Assembly: GCF_002863865.1 (NCBI RefSeq)
Contig: NZ_CP022684.1
Coordinates: forward strand, 3,143,990 to 3,167,989
Direction: 5' to 3'
DNA: 24,000 nucleotides
DNA from: Ketobacter alkanivorans
Lineage (GTDB): Bacteria; Pseudomonadota; Gammaproteobacteria; Pseudomonadales; Ketobacteraceae
Shown here: in pieces, positions 15,849 through 24,000 of the stretch
Position numbering within the stretch: position 1 is the first letter of the stretch
Layout of the letters: each line of letters starts with the position of its first letter
The notes under the pieces: generated by a model
What the model saw: only the letters and a program-made list of their open reading frames with translations
What the model was told of the DNA's origin: nothing
Databases searched by the model: none
Program-made: the position numbers and the translations under genes

Positions 15849-16427
15849 TTAGTAGGTCAAGCTGGAGAAGTGATCTGCGATGTGGAAGGCATTCGCCAGT
15901 TCCCACTGATCATAAGTCAGGTTGCCGTAGGCAAAGTGGGGATACAGTTCACCAGTGAAGTTCTGGAAATCACTGATGGCGTTACGGATACGCAGAAAGG
16001 CTTCTGGCAGCGGGCCGTCATCGGGGATTTCAGGGCCGGGCACTGGGGCAGCTAGGTCGTGGCTCATAAAGCCCTGGGCAACAAAGGCGTTAAAGCCGAT
16101 TTTGTTGATGGCCTGGGTGGCAGGCGGATCGTTCTCAGGGAAGCCGTACAGCGCGCCCTCTGCGGTCATGGCCAGGTGGTTAAGCACCTTATACAGCGAC
16201 CATTCCTGCTGCATTTCCAGAGTGTCCAGGTTGTTTTCGATCAAGGCCAGCTCAACCAGTGCGTCGTTCAGGCTCTCAAAGCGCAGGGCGCGGCCATTGT
16301 TGCTACAACCGGTCAGTGAACCCAGGCCGGCGGCGGCAGCCACCCCAACAGACAGGCGCAGGAAACTCTTTCGACTCATGGTGGTGGGCGCGTTCAGCTC
16401 ACCCATGTTATTGTTTTTATTGCTCAT
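15849..16427 (-). CDS. DUF1569/DinB-like four-helix-bundle protein with a Tat-like signal peptide and lipobox
   Basis: The N-terminus has SRKSFLRLSVGVAAAAGLGSLTGC, an RK variant of the twin-arginine motif followed by LTGC. The C-terminus LYPHFAYGNLTYDQWELANAFHIADHFSSL resembles the DUF1569 signature. The family call is from memory. Confidence 0.6.
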   Translation of the reverse strand: MSNKNNNMGELNAPTTMSRKSFLRLSVGVAAAAGLGSLTGCSNNGRALRFESLNDALVELALIENNLDTLEMQQEWSLYKVLNHLAMTAEGALYGFPENDPPATQAINKIGFNAFVAQGFMSHDLAAPVPGPEIPDDGPLPEAFLRIRNAISDFQNFTGELYPHFAYGNLTYDQWELANAFHIADHFSSLTY

Positions 16428-16565
16428 AACTCACTCTCTACATGCTTGGTCAATTGGGAAAGGAACAGTTGTGACAGCTCTAGTATTCGATTATAAAGAG
16501 GTGCAGTACAGGAAGCGCCCGTCCATAGGGATGGGCGCTTGTAATAGACCTATAAGGTGGTGTGA

Positions 16566-17531
16566 ATGATTCGCGTAAAGTGGTTGCACAATGCGGATAT
16601 TGCGGATGGTGGCAGGGATCTTATCAGTCAGTGGCAGCAGCAAGGTGGCGTCATCTGGATTGACATGTCAGACGAACCCGATGCCGATGAGGCCAAGCTG
16701 CTGACCAGCCTGGGATGCCACATGCTTGCCGTGCAGGATGCCCAGCGTCAAAGGCATCCCCCCAAGTTTGAAGACTTTGAAGACAATACCTTTGTGCTGT
16801 ATCGAGGTTTTGAGTCGTTTGAAAAGGATGTCAGTATCAAGCACGTGCAGGTTTCGTTCTTTATCAGCAAGAACTGTCTGATCACACGGCGTAATGGCGT
16901 ATCTTACGGGGTGGAAAGTCTGTGGAATGCGTCGGAAGATCTGCCCAAGTTTTTACATTCCCCCGCCATTTTGTTCACGCGAATTGTAAATCAGTCGCTG
17001 GCGCAATACACCAAGCGCATGCTGGAGCTGGAGGATGTGATCAGTCAGATGGAAGACGAGATGCTGGACTCACCCACTGACAGCCTGATGCAGCGCTTTG
17101 TGATGTATCGTTCCCGTCTGCGCAAGCTGAATCGGGTGTTCGGCTATCATGAAAAAGTATTCGGAGCGATTATCAAAGAATCAACACCGGTACTGGATAT
17201 GAGCGATGCCACGCTGTATCACCCCATGCAGGATGTGTACGACAAGTGCGAGCGGTTGTACAGTCTGACGACATTGTACTATGAGCAGTGTGGTGATTTG
17301 ATTGATGGTTATATTTCTTTGACGTCTCATCAACTGAATAAAACCATGCAGGCGCTAACCGTGATTACGGCGATCTTTGTTCCATTGGGCTTGCTGTCGG
17401 GTATTTACGGTATGAACTTTGAGAACATGCCTGAGCTGCATTCCCAAAATGGCTATTACATTCTATTGGGCGTGATGGCTACTGTGGCGATCACGCTGTT
17501 GATCTTCTTTCGCAGAAGGCGTTGGCTGTAA
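16566..17531 (+). CDS. corA: CorA-family divalent-cation (Mg2+/Co2+) transporter
   Basis: It has a soluble N-terminal domain followed by two C-terminal TM helices flanking the signature GIYGMNFENMPEL (the YGMN motif). Length is 321 aa. Confidence 0.88.
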   Translation: MIRVKWLHNADIADGGRDLISQWQQQGGVIWIDMSDEPDADEAKLLTSLGCHMLAVQDAQRQRHPPKFEDFEDNTFVLYRGFESFEKDVSIKHVQVSFFISKNCLITRRNGVSYGVESLWNASEDLPKFLHSPAILFTRIVNQSLAQYTKRMLELEDVISQMEDEMLDSPTDSLMQRFVMYRSRLRKLNRVFGYHEKVFGAIIKESTPVLDMSDATLYHPMQDVYDKCERLYSLTTLYYEQCGDLIDGYISLTSHQLNKTMQALTVITAIFVPLGLLSGIYGMNFENMPELHSQNGYYILLGVMATVAITLLIFFRRRRWL

Positions 17532-17959: not shown

Positions 17960-18652
17960 TTACTGTTTTCCTGCTTTTATACGCGCTAAAATGTCTGCCG
18001 CTGATGCGGATTCACCTTTGATGCCCGCACTTTCCAGTTTGCTGTCCAGATCATTGCCCGACATCTCTTTCTCCAGCAGCTCGCCTGCTTCCATTTGATC
18101 CTGCTTCATTTCCTGACGGGCTTTGATGCGCTCCAGTGATTCCCGCGCAGAGTTTAACGTAGAGTTGTTGGATGCTACGTTTTCTACTACTTGCTCGGTG
18201 GCCTTTTGCACGCTTTCTGTGGTGCGCACAATGGACAGTTCCCGTTCGTGGTCGGCAATTAGCTTCTCGGCCTTTTTAATATGGGCTTTGAGTTGCTCGA
18301 CCTGGCCGGTTAAGCGCGCCACAATGGCATCTTGTTCGGCTTTATTGTTTTCCAGGGTGGCGATCTTGCCTGCTACTTCCAGTGCCAGTGCTTCATCATT
18401 CTGATCCAGAGCTTTGCTGGCATAGGTTTCATGATTGCGAATTTCTTCCACGAAGCTACTTACTTTGCGCTCAGCCTGCATCTTGCGAGCCATGACCTCT
18501 GTAAGGTTGTGCTTGGCTTGCCCGATGCTGGCTTTAGCGTCGACGATTTCCTGCTCGAAAATACGAACACCATTTGAGTCAACAATGGCATCACCCATTT
18601 CCCTTACGCCACCGCGCAGTGCGGTCCAGATTTTATTTAATACGCTGCTCAT
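17960..18652 (-). CDS. PspA/IM30-family (ESCRT-III-like) protein, YjfJ-like
   Basis: MSSVLNKIWTALRGGVREMGDAIVDSNGVRIFEQEIVDAKASIGQAKHNLTEVMARKMQAERK... is a long coiled coil typical of PspA_IM30. GGAGA lies 6 nt before the ATG. It starts 38 nt after the upstream YjfI-like gene. Confidence 0.88.
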   Translation of the reverse strand: MSSVLNKIWTALRGGVREMGDAIVDSNGVRIFEQEIVDAKASIGQAKHNLTEVMARKMQAERKVSSFVEEIRNHETYASKALDQNDEALALEVAGKIATLENNKAEQDAIVARLTGQVEQLKAHIKKAEKLIADHERELSIVRTTESVQKATEQVVENVASNNSTLNSARESLERIKARQEMKQDQMEAGELLEKEMSGNDLDSKLESAGIKGESASAADILARIKAGKQ

Positions 18653-18690: not shown

Positions 18691-19098
18691 CTACACAAGG
18701 TAATTTTCGATGGCTTCCAGTGCGTCGTAAGCGTTGGAGGCCAGGGTGATCAATTCTTTGCAGACTTCGTTAAAGCTGCTGCTGGTGGCCATGGCTCCAA
18801 ACACAACGTAGTAATCTTCTACGATCGCAAAGGAACTCAAGGGCATTGCTACATTCAATTCAAGCATGGTTTTATTGAGTTCGGCGATGCGCTTGGGCTG
18901 AATTTCGGTTTGCTTGCACAGATACGTAATGCACAGTATTTGGGTGTCGGTGATGGTAACGAATATCGGCATGGCATCCAGCTCCGATACGATTACCTGC
19001 AGCACCTCCTGCTCGCCGTGAATGGGTAAACAATCGAAGGTGTGCCCTTCGTAATTCACTTGTCCCAGTTGATAGGTGAGTTCCTGAATTTGGGTCAT
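18691..19098 (-). CDS. YjfI/DUF2170-like protein (secretion-chaperone-like fold), first gene of the PspA operon
   Basis: Motifs are PIFVTITDTQILCITYL ... MPLSSFAIVEDYYVVFGAMATSSSFNEVCKELITLASNAYDALEAIENYL. Its size and its position directly upstream of a PspA-family gene match the E. coli yjfI-yjfJ arrangement (from memory). ATG 19098 has AAGGAGA 9 nt upstream. The track start at 19122 lies inside an operator palindrome. Confidence 0.65.
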   Translation of the reverse strand: MTQIQELTYQLGQVNYEGHTFDCLPIHGEQEVLQVIVSELDAMPIFVTITDTQILCITYLCKQTEIQPKRIAELNKTMLELNVAMPLSSFAIVEDYYVVFGAMATSSSFNEVCKELITLASNAYDALEAIENYLV

Positions 19099-19117
19099 CG
19101 GCTGTCGTCTCCTTTTT

Positions 19118-19170
19118 GACATATTATGTCGATAAGGTTAAGGTTAGACCTCTATGACATAACATGTCAA
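19118..19170 (-). promoter_or_regulatory. Leftward promoter of the yjfI-like/PspA operon with two palindromic operators
   Basis: Palindromes are GACATATTATGTC (19118-19130) and GACATAACATGTC (19156-19168). Read on the minus strand: TTGACA (19170-19165) as -35, an 18-nt spacer, TAACCT (19146-19141) as -10, then the second palindrome just upstream of the SD. Confidence 0.55.
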
Positions 19171-19297: not shown

Positions 19298-19314
19298 TTC
19301 TGTTGGGGAGTAAC

Positions 19315-19965
19315 ATGGAAGCGTTCTTTGCTAATATTTTTCACTATCCTACTGTTTTCTTTACGGTTTTGTTGCTGGTGTTGGCGGTATACTGGTTTTT
19401 CGCCATCCTCGGAATGATCGATATTGATGTGCTGGATCTGGACATGGATGTTGATGCGGATGTGGATGTTGATCTGGAAGGGTTAACTGGTTTGGCGGGG
19501 CTGTTGGTAACCTTGGGGCTGACCGGCGTGCCTGTGACGGTGGTCGTTACCTTGTTGTCGCTGTTGGCTTGGTTGGTCAGCTACTTTGTGGTGCATTTGT
19601 TCTTTTTTTGGGAGCCTGGCTCCCTGATGGGGTATTTGGTAGGTACGGCGGTGGTGCCGTTGGCTATCGCGGTATCGATACCGGTTACCGCGCAATTGAT
19701 CAAACCTTTGAAGCCTTTGTTTAAAAAAGCATACACGCCACCACCGGAGAAAGTACTGCTGGGGCGTACTTGCAACGTGCGTTCAACCCGCGTAGACGAG
19801 GCATTCGGCGAGGCGGCTGTGGATCTGGATGGTGCCAGTCTGATTCTGCGGATTCGCGCCAAGGCTGATGCCGGGCTCAAGCGGGGTGATGCTGTGGTGT
19901 TGATCGAACATCGGCCCGAGGACAATACCTATTGGGTTGTTCCGGAGCATGAGTTTAAAAAATAA
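19315..19965 (+). CDS. NfeD-like / YqiJ-family membrane protein with a C-terminal OB fold
   Basis: ATG 19315 lies 4 nt after GGGGAG; the track start is TTG 19303. It has several TM helices, an acidic loop DIDVLDLDMDVDADVDVDLE, and an NfeD-type C-terminal beta domain (LLGRTCNVRSTRVDEAFGEAAVDLDGASLILRIRAKADAGLKRGDAVVLIEH). It sits directly upstream of a flotillin gene, as in yqiJ-yqiK. Confidence 0.8.
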   Translation: MEAFFANIFHYPTVFFTVLLLVLAVYWFFAILGMIDIDVLDLDMDVDADVDVDLEGLTGLAGLLVTLGLTGVPVTVVVTLLSLLAWLVSYFVVHLFFFWEPGSLMGYLVGTAVVPLAIAVSIPVTAQLIKPLKPLFKKAYTPPPEKVLLGRTCNVRSTRVDEAFGEAAVDLDGASLILRIRAKADAGLKRGDAVVLIEHRPEDNTYWVVPEHEFKK

Positions 19966-20025: not shown

Positions 20026-22113
20026 ATGGATCTATCAATCATCATGCCTGTTCTAACGGTGGTGGGCTTTATTCTGCTGGTTTTGGTGGGGCTGTTATCC
20101 CTATTCAAGGCATTCTATATCAAGGTAGATCAGGGCAAGGCGCTGATTGTAAACGACATGTCATCTACGCCTAAGGTGTATTTTACAGGTGCGATGGTTT
20201 TACCGGTCATTCACCGCCGGGAGATCATGAAGATATCGGTGATCACATTAGAGATTGATCGTCGTGGCAAAGATGGCTTGATCTGTAAAGATAACCTGCG
20301 AGCGGATATCAATGTAGCATTCTATCTGCGCGTGAATGAAACCGCTCAGGATGTGCTGAAAGTTGCGAAAGCGGTAGGGGTTGAGCGAGCCTCCAGCAAA
20401 GATGCTGTTAATGAGCTATTCAATGCCAAATTCTCAGAGGCCCTGAAAACCGTGGGCAAGAAGATGGATTTTCTGGAACTGTTTGAAAACAGAATTCAGT
20501 TCCGTGATCGCATTATAGAAGTCATCGGTGAAGATCTTAACGGCTACGTATTGGAAGACGTGGCAATTGATTATCTTGAGCAGACTCCGAAATCCGCACT
20601 GGATCCTTACAATATCCTCGACTCCGAAGGTATTCGTCGGATTACCGAAATCACCGCCACCCAGAATGTTGAAACCAATCGTCTGGAGCGTGATGAAGAA
20701 CTTGAGATCAAGCGCAAAAATGTGTCCACCAGAGAGGCCATGCTGGAACTGGAGCGCCAACAGTCCGATGCCGAAGCCAAGCAGCAGCGCGAAGTAGAAA
20801 GCATCCGCGCCCGCGAACAGGCTGAAACACTCAAAGTTAAAGAAGAAGAGCGTCAGAAAGCGGAATCGGCGCGTATTTCTGCGGAGGAATCCATTCAAAT
20901 AGCAGAAGAAAACAAATGCCGCCAGGTAGAAATCGCGGGTAAGAATCGCGAGCGTGCAGTGGCTATCGAGCACGAGAAAGTTGAAAAAGCACGTCAGCTG
21001 GAAGTGGTGAATCGTGAACGTGAAGTTGAACTGCAAACCATTGAGAAAGAAAAAGCGCTGGAAGAAGAACGTAAGATAATCGCCAATACCATCAGTGAAC
21101 GTATTGCGGTTGAAAAGAAAGTGGCGGAAGAGGAAGAACGCATTAAAGACGTGCGCACTATCTCTGAGGCAGAGCGTTCCAAGCAGGTGAAGGTTTTGGA
21201 TGCGGAGGCAGATGCTCAAGAAGATCTGGTGAAGCATGTTAAGAAAGCTGAGGCCGAAGAATTGATGGCCACGCATCGCGCTAAAGAGATCAATGTCATT
21301 GCTCAGGCGGAGCTGGAAGCGGCTGCCAAGCAGGCTGAGGCCCAGATCAAGCGCGCTGAAGGCACTCAGGCCGAAGAAGCGGCTTCTGGATTGGCTGCGG
21401 CCAGAGTGCAGGAAGCCAAGGCGGTGGCATTGGAGAAAGAAGGTATTGCCAAGGCTAATGCTGATCAGGCGCAAGGCATTGCACGTGCCCGTGTGATCGA
21501 AGAGCAGGCTGCGGCCAACGAGAAGCAAGGCTTGGCTGATGCTCATGTGCTGGAAGAAAAACTGGCTGCGAAAGCGCGCGGTGAGAAGGAAATCGGCATG
21601 ACCGAAGTGAAGGTTATGGAAGGCAAGTTAACTGCCCAGGCCACCGGTGATGAAGCCATCGGTCGCGCTGCCGCAATCGCTGAGCGTGAGAAAGGTTTGG
21701 CAGCAGCAGAGATTATTCGTGAGAAAGCCCGTGCAGAAGCAGAAGGCCTGACCGATAAGTTCGATGCGATGAACAACATGAGCCCGGAAGCTCGTGAGTT
21801 TGAAGAGCTGCGTATGCGTCTGGAGCTGGCCTTCGAGGAAGTCATGGCAACAATTGCGGCCAATAAAGATATCGCTAAAGAGCAAGCGGATGTGCTGTCT
21901 GCAGCGTTGTCTAAAGCCAAGATCGAGATTGTTGGTGGCGAAGGGGATTACTTCAATAGCTTTGCCAAGGCGCTGTCGGTAGGTAATGCGATTAACGCGG
22001 TGTCTGGTAAGAGCCCTGTAGTACAGCAGGCGTTAAGTAAGCTGATGAGTCTGGGGGGCGGAGAGCAACCCGTTGCAACTGCACCGGATGTGGCAGTTGA
22101 TAAAGAAGCGTAA
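20026..22113 (+). CDS. Flotillin-family SPFH/Band-7 protein (YqiK-like) with a very long coiled coil
   Basis: It has an N-terminal TM helix (IIMPVLTVVGFILLVLVGLLSLF) and an SPFH domain (YIKVDQGKALIV ... LICKDNLRADINVAFYLRV ... LEDVAIDYLEQTP). An E/A/K/R-rich coiled coil of several hundred residues follows, with flotillin-like EA repeats. Confidence 0.9.
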   Translation: MDLSIIMPVLTVVGFILLVLVGLLSLFKAFYIKVDQGKALIVNDMSSTPKVYFTGAMVLPVIHRREIMKISVITLEIDRRGKDGLICKDNLRADINVAFYLRVNETAQDVLKVAKAVGVERASSKDAVNELFNAKFSEALKTVGKKMDFLELFENRIQFRDRIIEVIGEDLNGYVLEDVAIDYLEQTPKSALDPYNILDSEGIRRITEITATQNVETNRLERDEELEIKRKNVSTREAMLELERQQSDAEAKQQREVESIRAREQAETLKVKEEERQKAESARISAEESIQIAEENKCRQVEIAGKNRERAVAIEHEKVEKARQLEVVNREREVELQTIEKEKALEEERKIIANTISERIAVEKKVAEEEERIKDVRTISEAERSKQVKVLDAEADAQEDLVKHVKKAEAEELMATHRAKEINVIAQAELEAAAKQAEAQIKRAEGTQAEEAASGLAAARVQEAKAVALEKEGIAKANADQAQGIARARVIEEQAAANEKQGLADAHVLEEKLAAKARGEKEIGMTEVKVMEGKLTAQATGDEAIGRAAAIAEREKGLAAAEIIREKARAEAEGLTDKFDAMNNMSPEAREFEELRMRLELAFEEVMATIAANKDIAKEQADVLSAALSKAKIEIVGGEGDYFNSFAKALSVGNAINAVSGKSPVVQQALSKLMSLGGGEQPVATAPDVAVDKEA

Positions 22114-22170
22114 TGCATAGGAAACATTGGGGGTGAACGCCCCCTAAACAGGAATGTTGAGGGTCAGTAA

Positions 22171-24000
22171 GTGACAGTGAGTCAAACAGCATCTGAACAG
22201 CAGGTCGAGTCGGCGGTTTCTCAGGGCTCCGCTTATGAAGTCATCCGTAACCGATTGATTGATCAGGGTAGTCAGTTAGAGGCACTGGCTACACAGATAA
22301 ACCAACAGCGCATGGACGAATTCGGCTCCACCGAGCTCAATGTGATCGGTCGTACACGGGTACGTACCGAAAACAACTGTGTAGCGCGGGATATTGTGCG
22401 TGCCGGAGACTATTTGCTGTTTGGCTACAACGTTTTTATTGGCCTGAAACAGACCACCTCGGTGGAGGATGTGTTTTCGCTTTATCGGCTGGTGGAAGGA
22501 GACGGGTCGCTGGATATGGAGCCAGTGGCGACAGAGTCGACTTTCTTAGGTGATGCCCGGTTTGTGTCGGACTTTAACGAGCTTTACACCTATTACAAAA
22601 ACACGTTTCTAACTCAGTTGCGAGTAAAGGATGGACGCCTGCTGGCAGCGTTTCAGATCGGTGAACGTGATACCGATATCCGGGTGTTTCGTTGGTCGGT
22701 ATCGGCCGATGGTAAAACAATAGAGTACATTGATAACCGTGGTGAGCGCGATATTGAGTTGCCGCCGGCCTGGGATTTCGAATGGCAAGAGGTGAGCAGG
22801 GAGCTGATGGTGGATGGCCGTCATCCTCATATCAATGTTTTGGACACGATTTTTGTAGACACCATTCACGGCGATCTGACCATTAAAGTAGAGAACAACA
22901 CCCGCAGCGGTCAGGGTATCTATTCTGAGCCGGTGGAAGATGTAAACCAATCCCTGGACGATGCTGATTTTTATTTTGCGGAAATAGGGCAGTTGATACT
23001 GCTGCGCATCAAACCCTATCAAGAAGAAGCGTGGCGGCATTTGGTATTTAATCGCCTGAATAACAGCGTGGTGCGCATTGATGCTATCGGTGACAGCTGT
23101 CAGCAGTTGCCAGAGGATCATGGCATTGTTTTTCCGGGCGGTTACTATTTGCAAACTGGCGACTATAAGACCTTTGATGAGCCTCTCTATGGGCTGCGCT
23201 TTCGTCGGGTAATTCGCTCTCCCAATGGGGAAGATGTGCTCTATGTGTATTACCAGGCTGAGCAGGGTGTAGTCGCCCTTTATCCTTACAACATGATTGA
23301 AAAATCATTGCGTAATCCAGTTTATGGCCACGGCTATGGGCTTTTTGAGGATGGTCGCATGGTGGTGTTCTCTGCTGATGATGAGCCGACCCGCGTGCAC
23401 CCTATGCAAATCTGGCAATCTCCGTTCTTTAGTGATGTGCATGCCAGTCAGGCCCAGCAGTCGCAAAGTTTCTTTGGTCGTATTGGTAATGCCGAGCTGG
23501 TGCGTGGTATATCCGATTTGTTCAGTGTTGTGCAGCTGATTCGCAACCCTGAGGCAGCATCTGCCCATTACCTTGAATTGTGCAAATACGCGTCGCGTTT
23601 GTTCGACCAGTATCACTGGCTATCGGACAAAAGCCTTACGGATGTTCACGGCGTATTAAAGTCCATCATCGAATCCGGCGAGTTGGTGCTGGATGAGTAT
23701 GAAAAAGTTCAGAGTATTCGAAAAAGCTCGCAGCAGGCATTGTTGCAGGCCGAGCAGTCTGTTGCTGATCTGATCAAACAGTTGCAACCGGATGGCTGGA
23801 CGGTGCCGCAGCCGTATATGACCGCTATGATGGATATTCGAAAATTGCGCGGGCATTTGCTCACGATTTTAGAGTATCGTTATATCGATCAGGTACGTAT
23901 TCATGAGCTGGATGGCAAGCTCATGAACAAGCAAGGGTTTATCGCCGAGCGCACCATTGAATTCCTGGCCCAGGATGATTCGCTTGATCCATTCTATGAT
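22171..24000 (+). CDS. Large uncharacterised protein, 5' part only (at least 610 aa, runs off the window): coiled coil, then a beta-rich propeller-like region, then a helical region
   Basis: This ORF is not in the supplied track. I translated it by hand. GTG 22171 follows an in-frame TAA (22168-22170) and a GAGGG SD (22159-22163). There are 610 sense codons with no stop through base 24000. Translation begins VTVSQTASEQQVESAVSQGSAYEVIRNRLIDQGSQLEALATQINQQRMDEFG... It starts 57 nt after the flotillin stop on the same strand. All track ORFs in 22609-23856 are antisense to it. Confidence 0.75.
   Translation, partial: MTVSQTASEQQVESAVSQGSAYEVIRNRLIDQGSQLEALATQINQQRMDEFGSTELNVIGRTRVRTENNCVARDIVRAGDYLLFGYNVFIGLKQTTSVEDVFSLYRLVEGDGSLDMEPVATESTFLGDARFVSDFNELYTYYKNTFLTQLRVKDGRLLAAFQIGERDTDIRVFRWSVSADGKTIEYIDNRGERDIELPPAWDFEWQEVSRELMVDGRHPHINVLDTIFVDTIHGDLTIKVENNTRSGQGIYSEPVEDVNQSLDDADFYFAEIGQLILLRIKPYQEEAWRHLVFNRLNNSVVRIDAIGDSCQQLPEDHGIVFPGGYYLQTGDYKTFDEPLYGLRFRRVIRSPNGEDVLYVYYQAEQGVVALYPYNMIEKSLRNPVYGHGYGLFEDGRMVVFSADDEPTRVHPMQIWQSPFFSDVHASQAQQSQSFFGRIGNAELVRGISDLFSVVQLIRNPEAASAHYLELCKYASRLFDQYHWLSDKSLTDVHGVLKSIIESGELVLDEYEKVQSIRKSSQQALLQAEQSVADLIKQLQPDGWTVPQPYMTAMMDIRKLRGHLLTILEYRYIDQVRIHELDGKLMNKQGFIAERTIEFLAQDDSLDPFYD

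Follow-up and report, generated by a model that had tools for sequence, protein, structure and literature searches.

The N-terminal third of a predicted giant DUF3686 AAA+ ATPase encoded beside flotillin, YqiJ-like and PspA genes in Ketobacter alkanivorans

Results

We analysed a stretch of 24,000 nt from the Ketobacter alkanivorans contig NZ_CP022684.1 (positions 3,143,990-3,167,989, forward strand; hereafter the window), which ends inside a gene for a putative DUF3686-DUF7902-AAA+ ATPase. The gene begins at GTG 22171 and its frame is still open at the window end: translation of 22171-24000 (+) yielded 610 sense codons and no stop. An in-frame TAA (22168-22170) immediately precedes the start codon, and a Shine-Dalgarno-like GAGGG is located 7 nt 5' of it (22159-22163, +). 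Calculated from the base composition of the window, the chance of 610 stop-free codons is about 1.7e-12. The GC content of the three codon positions (0.59 / 0.35 / 0.55) follows a pattern similar to that of the neighbouring gene. An earlier prediction made for this DNA (the original prediction) had proposed an open frame from GTG 22171 behind the TAA and the GAGGG, and translation and sequence reading bear this out. It had also suspected that the frame was dropped from the mechanical list of open reading frames (ORFs) for lack of a stop within the window; indeed, the frame is absent from this list, which omits ORFs running off the window end. That is, the open-ended reading frame is a real gene, as its stop-free translation, its Pfam DUF3686 match and its orthologs attest.

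Pfam assigned residues 36-482 of the 610-residue fragment to DUF3686 (PF12458) with E = 3.4e-203 and 675.6 bits (cut-off 25), and the match spans profile positions 2-448 of 448. The family name suggested in the original prediction was thus correct. We modelled the fragment with AlphaFold2 on a 48-sequence alignment (mean predicted local distance difference test score, pLDDT, 88.8; predicted template modelling score 0.80). According to the model and its DSSP assignment, residues 1-51 (22171-22323, +) would form a long N-terminal helix composed of helices 3-18 and 20-51, with a pLDDT of 86-95 from residue 21. Both the original prediction and Ravi et al. (2024, mSystems; PMC11237479) had labelled this region a coiled coil; here it is modelled as helices. 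A beta-propeller is predicted for residues 57-416 (22339-23418, +; pLDDT mostly 88-95). Its ~28 strands correspond, by our count from the strand list, to about seven four-stranded blades, the last of which is probably closed by strand 57-66. The remainder, residues 422-610 (23434-24000, +), is modelled as a helical domain (helices 422-609). This domain takes in the last part of DUF3686 and leads up to DUF7902, whose start in orthologs falls just past the window.

When the fragment model was compared with the PDB using Foldseek, 137 matches were obtained at E <= 1e-3. Each of the best 50 contains a beta-propeller, at an identity of ~10%, and the proteins among these 50 include Elp1, Ski8, YncE, PON1, prolyl oligopeptidase and the clathrin N-terminal domain. 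As modelled, the fold class of the fragment is clear, and it has no close solved relative. The strands at 57-416, the propeller matches and the helices at 422-609 agree with what had been read from the sequence beforehand, namely a propeller-compatible region at residues ~50-430 followed by a helical one at ~430-610. The absence of a Walker A motif from the 610 residues had been noted correctly as well. Likewise, no MIT domain was detected: DUF3686 was the sole Pfam family in the N-terminal 610 residues.

The part of the protein encoded beyond the window was approached through orthologs. A scan in which each species was represented by a single genome yielded 216 related stretches; 80 loci were retained. 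The closest four (L001-L004) are metagenome-assembled genomes of Ketobacter and other Pseudomonadales with 83-85% identity. They share the gene order of the window from CorA onward, and their ATPase gene encodes 1,761-1,765 aa. In the L004 protein (84% identical), Pfam identified DUF3686 at residues 45-491, DUF7902 (PF25472) at 613-695 and AAA/AAA_5 at 1298-1425, and its translation contains both SPPGYGKTT and MLYLDDIQ. Among the 72 orthologs with a complete ORF, 70 measure 1,566-1,882 aa and possess an invariant Walker A motif, SPPGYGKTTLMEY, near residue 1,300. The other two end before the AAA+ module (L066:9941-12187, 748 aa; L072:9986-13153, 1,055 aa); pseudogenes, split genes and misassembly are all conceivable. 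In a representative library of 1.84 billion 50%-identity clusters, 805 members were related at E <= 1e-3 and 273 at E <= 1e-30, with full-length representatives of ~1,590-2,036 aa. Protein database searches with N- and C-terminal queries returned partial proteins only (<=1,065 aa). Since only partial proteins are listed, the domain lists from these searches under-report the AAA module of DUF3686 ATPases; full lengths were taken from the genome loci and the representative library.

By comparison with these orthologs, the window protein should have a full length of ~1,756 aa and its gene should continue for ~3.4 kb past the window. No obvious membrane-spanning segment was found on reading the full-length L004 translation. 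The ORF is therefore predicted to cover the N-terminal third of a ~1,760-residue soluble AAA+ ATPase. The domains of the family are arranged in the order N-terminal helix, propeller, helical domain (DUF3686), DUF7902 and a largely helical linker of ~600 residues, after which come the AAA+ module, which is divergent, and a tail of helices. The expectation that the fragment begins a giant ATPase with its AAA module past position 24000 is thus supported by L001-L004 and by 70 of the 72 complete orthologs.

The AAA region is strongly conserved, with a mean column identity of 73% across phyla and ~60-80% identity between phyla. The Walker A core GYGKTT and the Walker B core LYLDD are both invariant. 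A profile of the region matched NVL, Rix7, p97, VAT and NSF as well as RuvB in the PDB (E = 3e-5 to 1e-3), over 34-67 P-loop residues only. In hhalign comparisons with E. coli proteins, the ortholog profile aligned with RuvB over 43 columns (probability 95), with FtsH over 34 columns (probability 88) and, weakly, with RavA over 82 columns (probability 10), in each case in a P-loop segment only. When the full-length ortholog sequence was run against the PDB, no match was obtained. The model of the C-terminal fragment had its top Foldseek matches, which were weak (E ~7e-4 to 5e-3), in the MoxR-type ATPases NorQ and CbbQ, followed by Skd3/ClpB, ClpA, RuvB and MCM; no Vps4 structure was among the best 50 matches listed. 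On L004, Pfam AAA_5 scored 27.6 bits (cut-off 22) over profile positions 2-127 of 139, and the PF00004 match was confined to profile positions 2-70 of 131. Some fragments carry the JGI name 'MoxR-like ATPase'. None of the window proteins scanned with Pfam had a VWA domain. Membership in the AAA+ superfamily, as judged from these sequence matches, appears sound for the orthologs, and the modelled fold leans to the MoxR type.

These matches bear on an alternative reading, that the protein is a genuine Vps4-type classical AAA ATPase which disassembles PspA polymers, so that the locus would represent a bacterial ESCRT-III/Vps4 system. The P-loop does score best against classical AAA proteins. However, the N-terminus is a predicted propeller instead of an MIT domain, the alignment with classical AAA proteins breaks off after at most 67 residues without features of the second region of homology, and the top folds are NorQ and CbbQ, then ClpB and RuvB. 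The labels 'classical AAA' and 'Vps4-like' of the original prediction are not supported by this comparison. The genes around the ATPase, described in the following, speak to the same alternative.

Directly 5' of the ATPase gene, on the same strand and separated by a gap of 57 nt, lies the gene of a 695-aa YqiK-like flotillin (20026-22113, +) with an N-terminal transmembrane segment, an SPFH region and a long Glu/Ala-rich helical region. Its identification required hhalign against E. coli YqiK (probability 99.9, E = 2.3e-32, 400 columns), because the Pfam models Band_7 and Flot miss the protein; none of 16 sequences (the 695-aa protein and 15 orthologs, alignment A4) was matched by either. The YqiK-like flotillin clade is an annotation blind spot of these two models. 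Upstream of it, a 220-aa YqiJ/YuaF-like (short NfeD-like) membrane protein is encoded (19303-19965, +; hhalign against E. coli YqiJ: probability 87, E = 4e-6). Its translation shows hydrophobic segments and a C-terminal soluble domain, and an acidic Asp/Val-rich linker, DIDVLDLDMDVDADVDVDLEG, follows the first transmembrane segment. Orthologs and sequence suggest that its true start is probably ATG 19315 (MEAFF...), not the listed TTG 19303. Searches of the PDB with flotillin-like and YqiJ-like profiles returned nothing.

The three plus-strand genes are spaced by gaps of 57-60 nt, and back-to-back with them lies a divergent pair on the minus strand. The first gene of this pair encodes a 143-aa DUF2170/YjfI-like protein (18691-19122, -; Pfam DUF2170 E = 1e-37), a family that Ravi et al. 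(PMC11237479) count as part of the CesT/Tir chaperone superfamily. The second encodes a 230-aa PspA/IM30 protein of the ESCRT-III superfamily (17960-18652, -; Pfam PspA_IM30 E = 7.2e-40), which is of the yjfJ type of Ravi et al. since it is paired with a DUF2170 gene. Between the flotillin and ATPase genes we noticed a small GC hairpin, GGGGGTGAACGCCCCC (22129-22144), that has no plus-strand T-run and a fold energy no better than that of shuffled sequence (z = -0.89); no plus-strand terminator was found in this gap. A promoter scan likewise performed no better than on shuffled sequence.

To what extent this arrangement is conserved was assessed among those of the 80 kept loci that had enough upstream DNA; they span Gammaproteobacteria, Gemmatimonadota, Myxococcota, Acidobacteriota and Bacteroidota. 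A flotillin-like gene directly upstream and on the same strand was present in 68 of 70 loci, and a YqiJ-like gene upstream on the same strand in 65 of 66. Of 61 loci, 33 had PspA near the ATPase gene, co-directional in 26 and, like the window, divergent in 7; it was absent from the other 28. Hence, the core unit consists of YqiJ-like, flotillin and ATPase genes, the ATPase being the last, and is often accompanied by the DUF2170-PspA pair as an accessory. The link to the adjacent PspA and flotillin genes that had been predicted is supported by this conserved order; PspA as a constant partner is not, since that place belongs to the flotillin/YqiJ pair. For a Vps4-type ATPase, the PspA gene ~3.5 kb away in the window and the linkage in about half of the loci are favourable, but the absence of PspA from the other loci, beside a near-constant flotillin, is not. 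In addition, a 2025 review states that bacteria seem to lack a Vps4-like ATPase (PMC7619361). Taken together with the fold matches, we regard a genuine Vps4-type system as unlikely.

Downstream of the ATPase gene, no conserved gene was found. In the clade of the window, as represented by its closest relatives, a Na+/H+ exchanger with a TrkA_N domain follows; in subsets of other loci, genes for a PLD-like HKD hydrolase, a rhomboid protease, a zinc-ribbon protein or a GGDEF cyclase stand close behind it (examples of these variable genes are L024:15185-15874, L010:15654-16223, L008:15310-15843 and L052:15234-16373). Such genes may serve the cassette as accessory effectors. In the case of pQBR103, a Pseudomonas megaplasmid (L085, NC_009444.1, 85410-101227), the cassette is part of a single co-directional array of PspA, rhomboid, DUF2491, DUF350, DUF1190, glutathionylspermidine-synthase-like, hypothetical, SPFH and 'DNA repair ATPase' genes. 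There it is joined to a yjf-type polyamine operon, and the array merges both PspA operon types of Ravi et al.

The variable effector-like genes (PLD-like, rhomboid, GGDEF), the copies on megaplasmids including pQBR103 and a similar identity in distant phyla (46-58%), which suggests horizontal transfer, would all suit a mobile anti-phage or abortive-infection module at the membrane, in which the ATPase of the YqiJ-flotillin-ATPase cassette served as sensor or switch. Yet no credible PADLOC match was obtained for the ATPase, the flotillin or the YqiJ-like protein, the best being IetA with E = 0.0076. Furthermore, the window cassette resides among the housekeeping genes CorA, UbiB/ABC1 and those of the glycine cleavage system, and its PspA and flotillin context indicates envelope stress. 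We thus consider a defence function quite improbable.

A role in DNA repair is what database names imply. Pfam describes DUF3686 as 'ATPase involved in DNA repair', NCBI names orthologs accordingly (for instance the PGAP-annotated 1,748-aa relative of pQBR103, 'DNA repair ATPase'), and the P-loop aligns with that of RuvB; one may speculate that this RuvB-like P-loop is the origin of the label. However, Pfam detected no nucleic-acid-binding, nuclease or helicase domain in the full-length L004 ortholog, the gene is strictly linked to genes of membrane proteins (flotillin, YqiJ-like, PspA) and not to repair genes, and we found no paper tying the family to DNA repair. A repair ATPase therefore seems hardly credible.

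The other genes of the window are housekeeping genes; besides CorA, UbiB/ABC1 and the glycine cleavage system they encode histidine kinases, an ABC transporter, a nitroreductase, an outer-membrane protein and a DUF1569 protein. Two ORFs overlap on opposite strands: 15849-16427 (-), with a DUF1569 match of E = 1.3e-29, is probably the real gene, and 15955-16569 (+), 204 aa without a family match, is probably a shadow ORF.

Discussion

The operon to which the window gene belongs has already been described computationally, and with the same functional suggestion, by Ravi et al. in mSystems (PMC11237479). These authors propose ATP-dependent remodelling of membranes or complexes, list an example from Dokdonia in their Table S3, and report shortened operons without PspA and an occasional PLD hydrolase. 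Their 'beta-propeller + coiled-coil + AAA+ ATPase' matches the window gene in Pfam families, predicted domain order and gene neighbours. Nothing essential differs; here the DUF2170-PspA pair is divergent, as in the seven linked loci mentioned above, and not co-directional. The window gene is thus one more, truncated, example of a published family and operon, and no new principle follows from it. What goes slightly past that study is the high-confidence structural model, with its propeller of about seven blades, the invariant DD of the Walker B motif and the fold matches of the AAA+ module, which lean towards MoxR; each of these could guide experiments. Apart from this, a 2026 survey of the SPFH proteins of P. 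aeruginosa leaves the ATPase unmentioned, and our literature searches for DUF3686, or for 'DNA repair ATPase' together with flotillin, retrieved no papers.

Three known systems invite comparison. With Vps4/CdvC, the window ATPase shares a P-loop that resembles classical AAA and a genetic link to an ESCRT-III-superfamily protein, PspA, so that remodelling of polymers is plausible by inference. It differs in being ~4x larger, in its N-terminal helix and propeller in place of MIT, in lacking an alignable second region of homology, in a fold nearer to MoxR, ClpB and RuvB, and in having flotillin, not PspA, as the constant partner. MoxR-type ATPases (NorQ, CbbQ, RavA; AAA_5) provide the best Foldseek matches and an AAA_5 score above cut-off. 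In contrast to them, the window family carries an N-terminal extension of ~1,200 residues and a DD Walker B, has no VWA partner nearby and is barely related to E. coli RavA in the hhalign comparison. Finally, HflK/C-FtsH, in which a scaffold of the SPFH family is coupled both genetically and functionally to an AAA+ ATPase, offers a precedent for a partnership of this kind (PMC13220708). The differences are that Pfam found no protease domain in the full-length L004 ortholog, that alignment with FtsH is confined to the P-loop and that the flotillin is YqiK-like instead of HflK/C.

We consider it fairly probable that the ATPase uses ATP to remodel the membrane scaffolds formed by flotillin and PspA, or acts as a chaperone of their assembly. 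Its AAA+ module would oligomerise into a ring, and the N-terminal helix, the propeller and the helical region, all encoded in the window, would serve as the docking or substrate-recognition end. This end would attach to the flotillin/NfeD cage on its cytoplasmic side and, in loci that have PspA, to PspA polymers as well, and ATP hydrolysis would drive assembly or disassembly of the scaffold, or extraction of clients, in envelope stress. Such a function would resemble that of Vps4 on ESCRT-III or of FtsH with HflK/C, although the ATPase belongs to neither family. The fold matches of the AAA+ module to the protein-remodelling ATPases NorQ, CbbQ and Skd3/ClpB are consistent with remodelling.

Several points weigh against this proposal. 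The window stops ahead of the ATPase domain, so that the ATPase part rests on orthologs. Physical interaction with the flotillin, the YqiJ-like protein and PspA is predicted from gene linkage, and we found no experimental study of any DUF3686 ATPase in the literature. The model of the C-terminal fragment is of moderate confidence (pLDDT 71, core 80-92), and the MoxR-type affinity that it suggests is tentative. The invariant Walker B sequence LYLDDIQHT (alignment A2: L004:13472-14851 and 26 other loci) has DD and not the usual hDE, so that ATP hydrolysis may be slow, unusual or regulated. Moreover, E. coli K-12 possesses yqiJK without such an ATPase adjacent, which argues that flotillin function does not generally need it.

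In databases, DUF3686 ATPases are mislabelled as 'DNA repair ATPase'. For a remodelling of the ESCRT-III-like polymers of PspA/Vipp1 and the SPFH cages of flotillin that does without Vps4, the family is the most obvious candidate motor, because of its tight linkage to flotillin/NfeD genes and its frequent linkage to PspA. We offer, tentatively and as a possibility short of an even chance, that DUF3686 ATPases may supply the motor, so far missing, by which bacteria would use ATP to drive the dynamics of their membrane scaffolds. In this reading they would form a giant AAA+ ring, not of Vps4 type, whose N-terminal propeller would grip flotillin/NfeD cages and PspA polymers so as to assemble or dismantle them, and which would represent an independently evolved functional analogue of Vps4.

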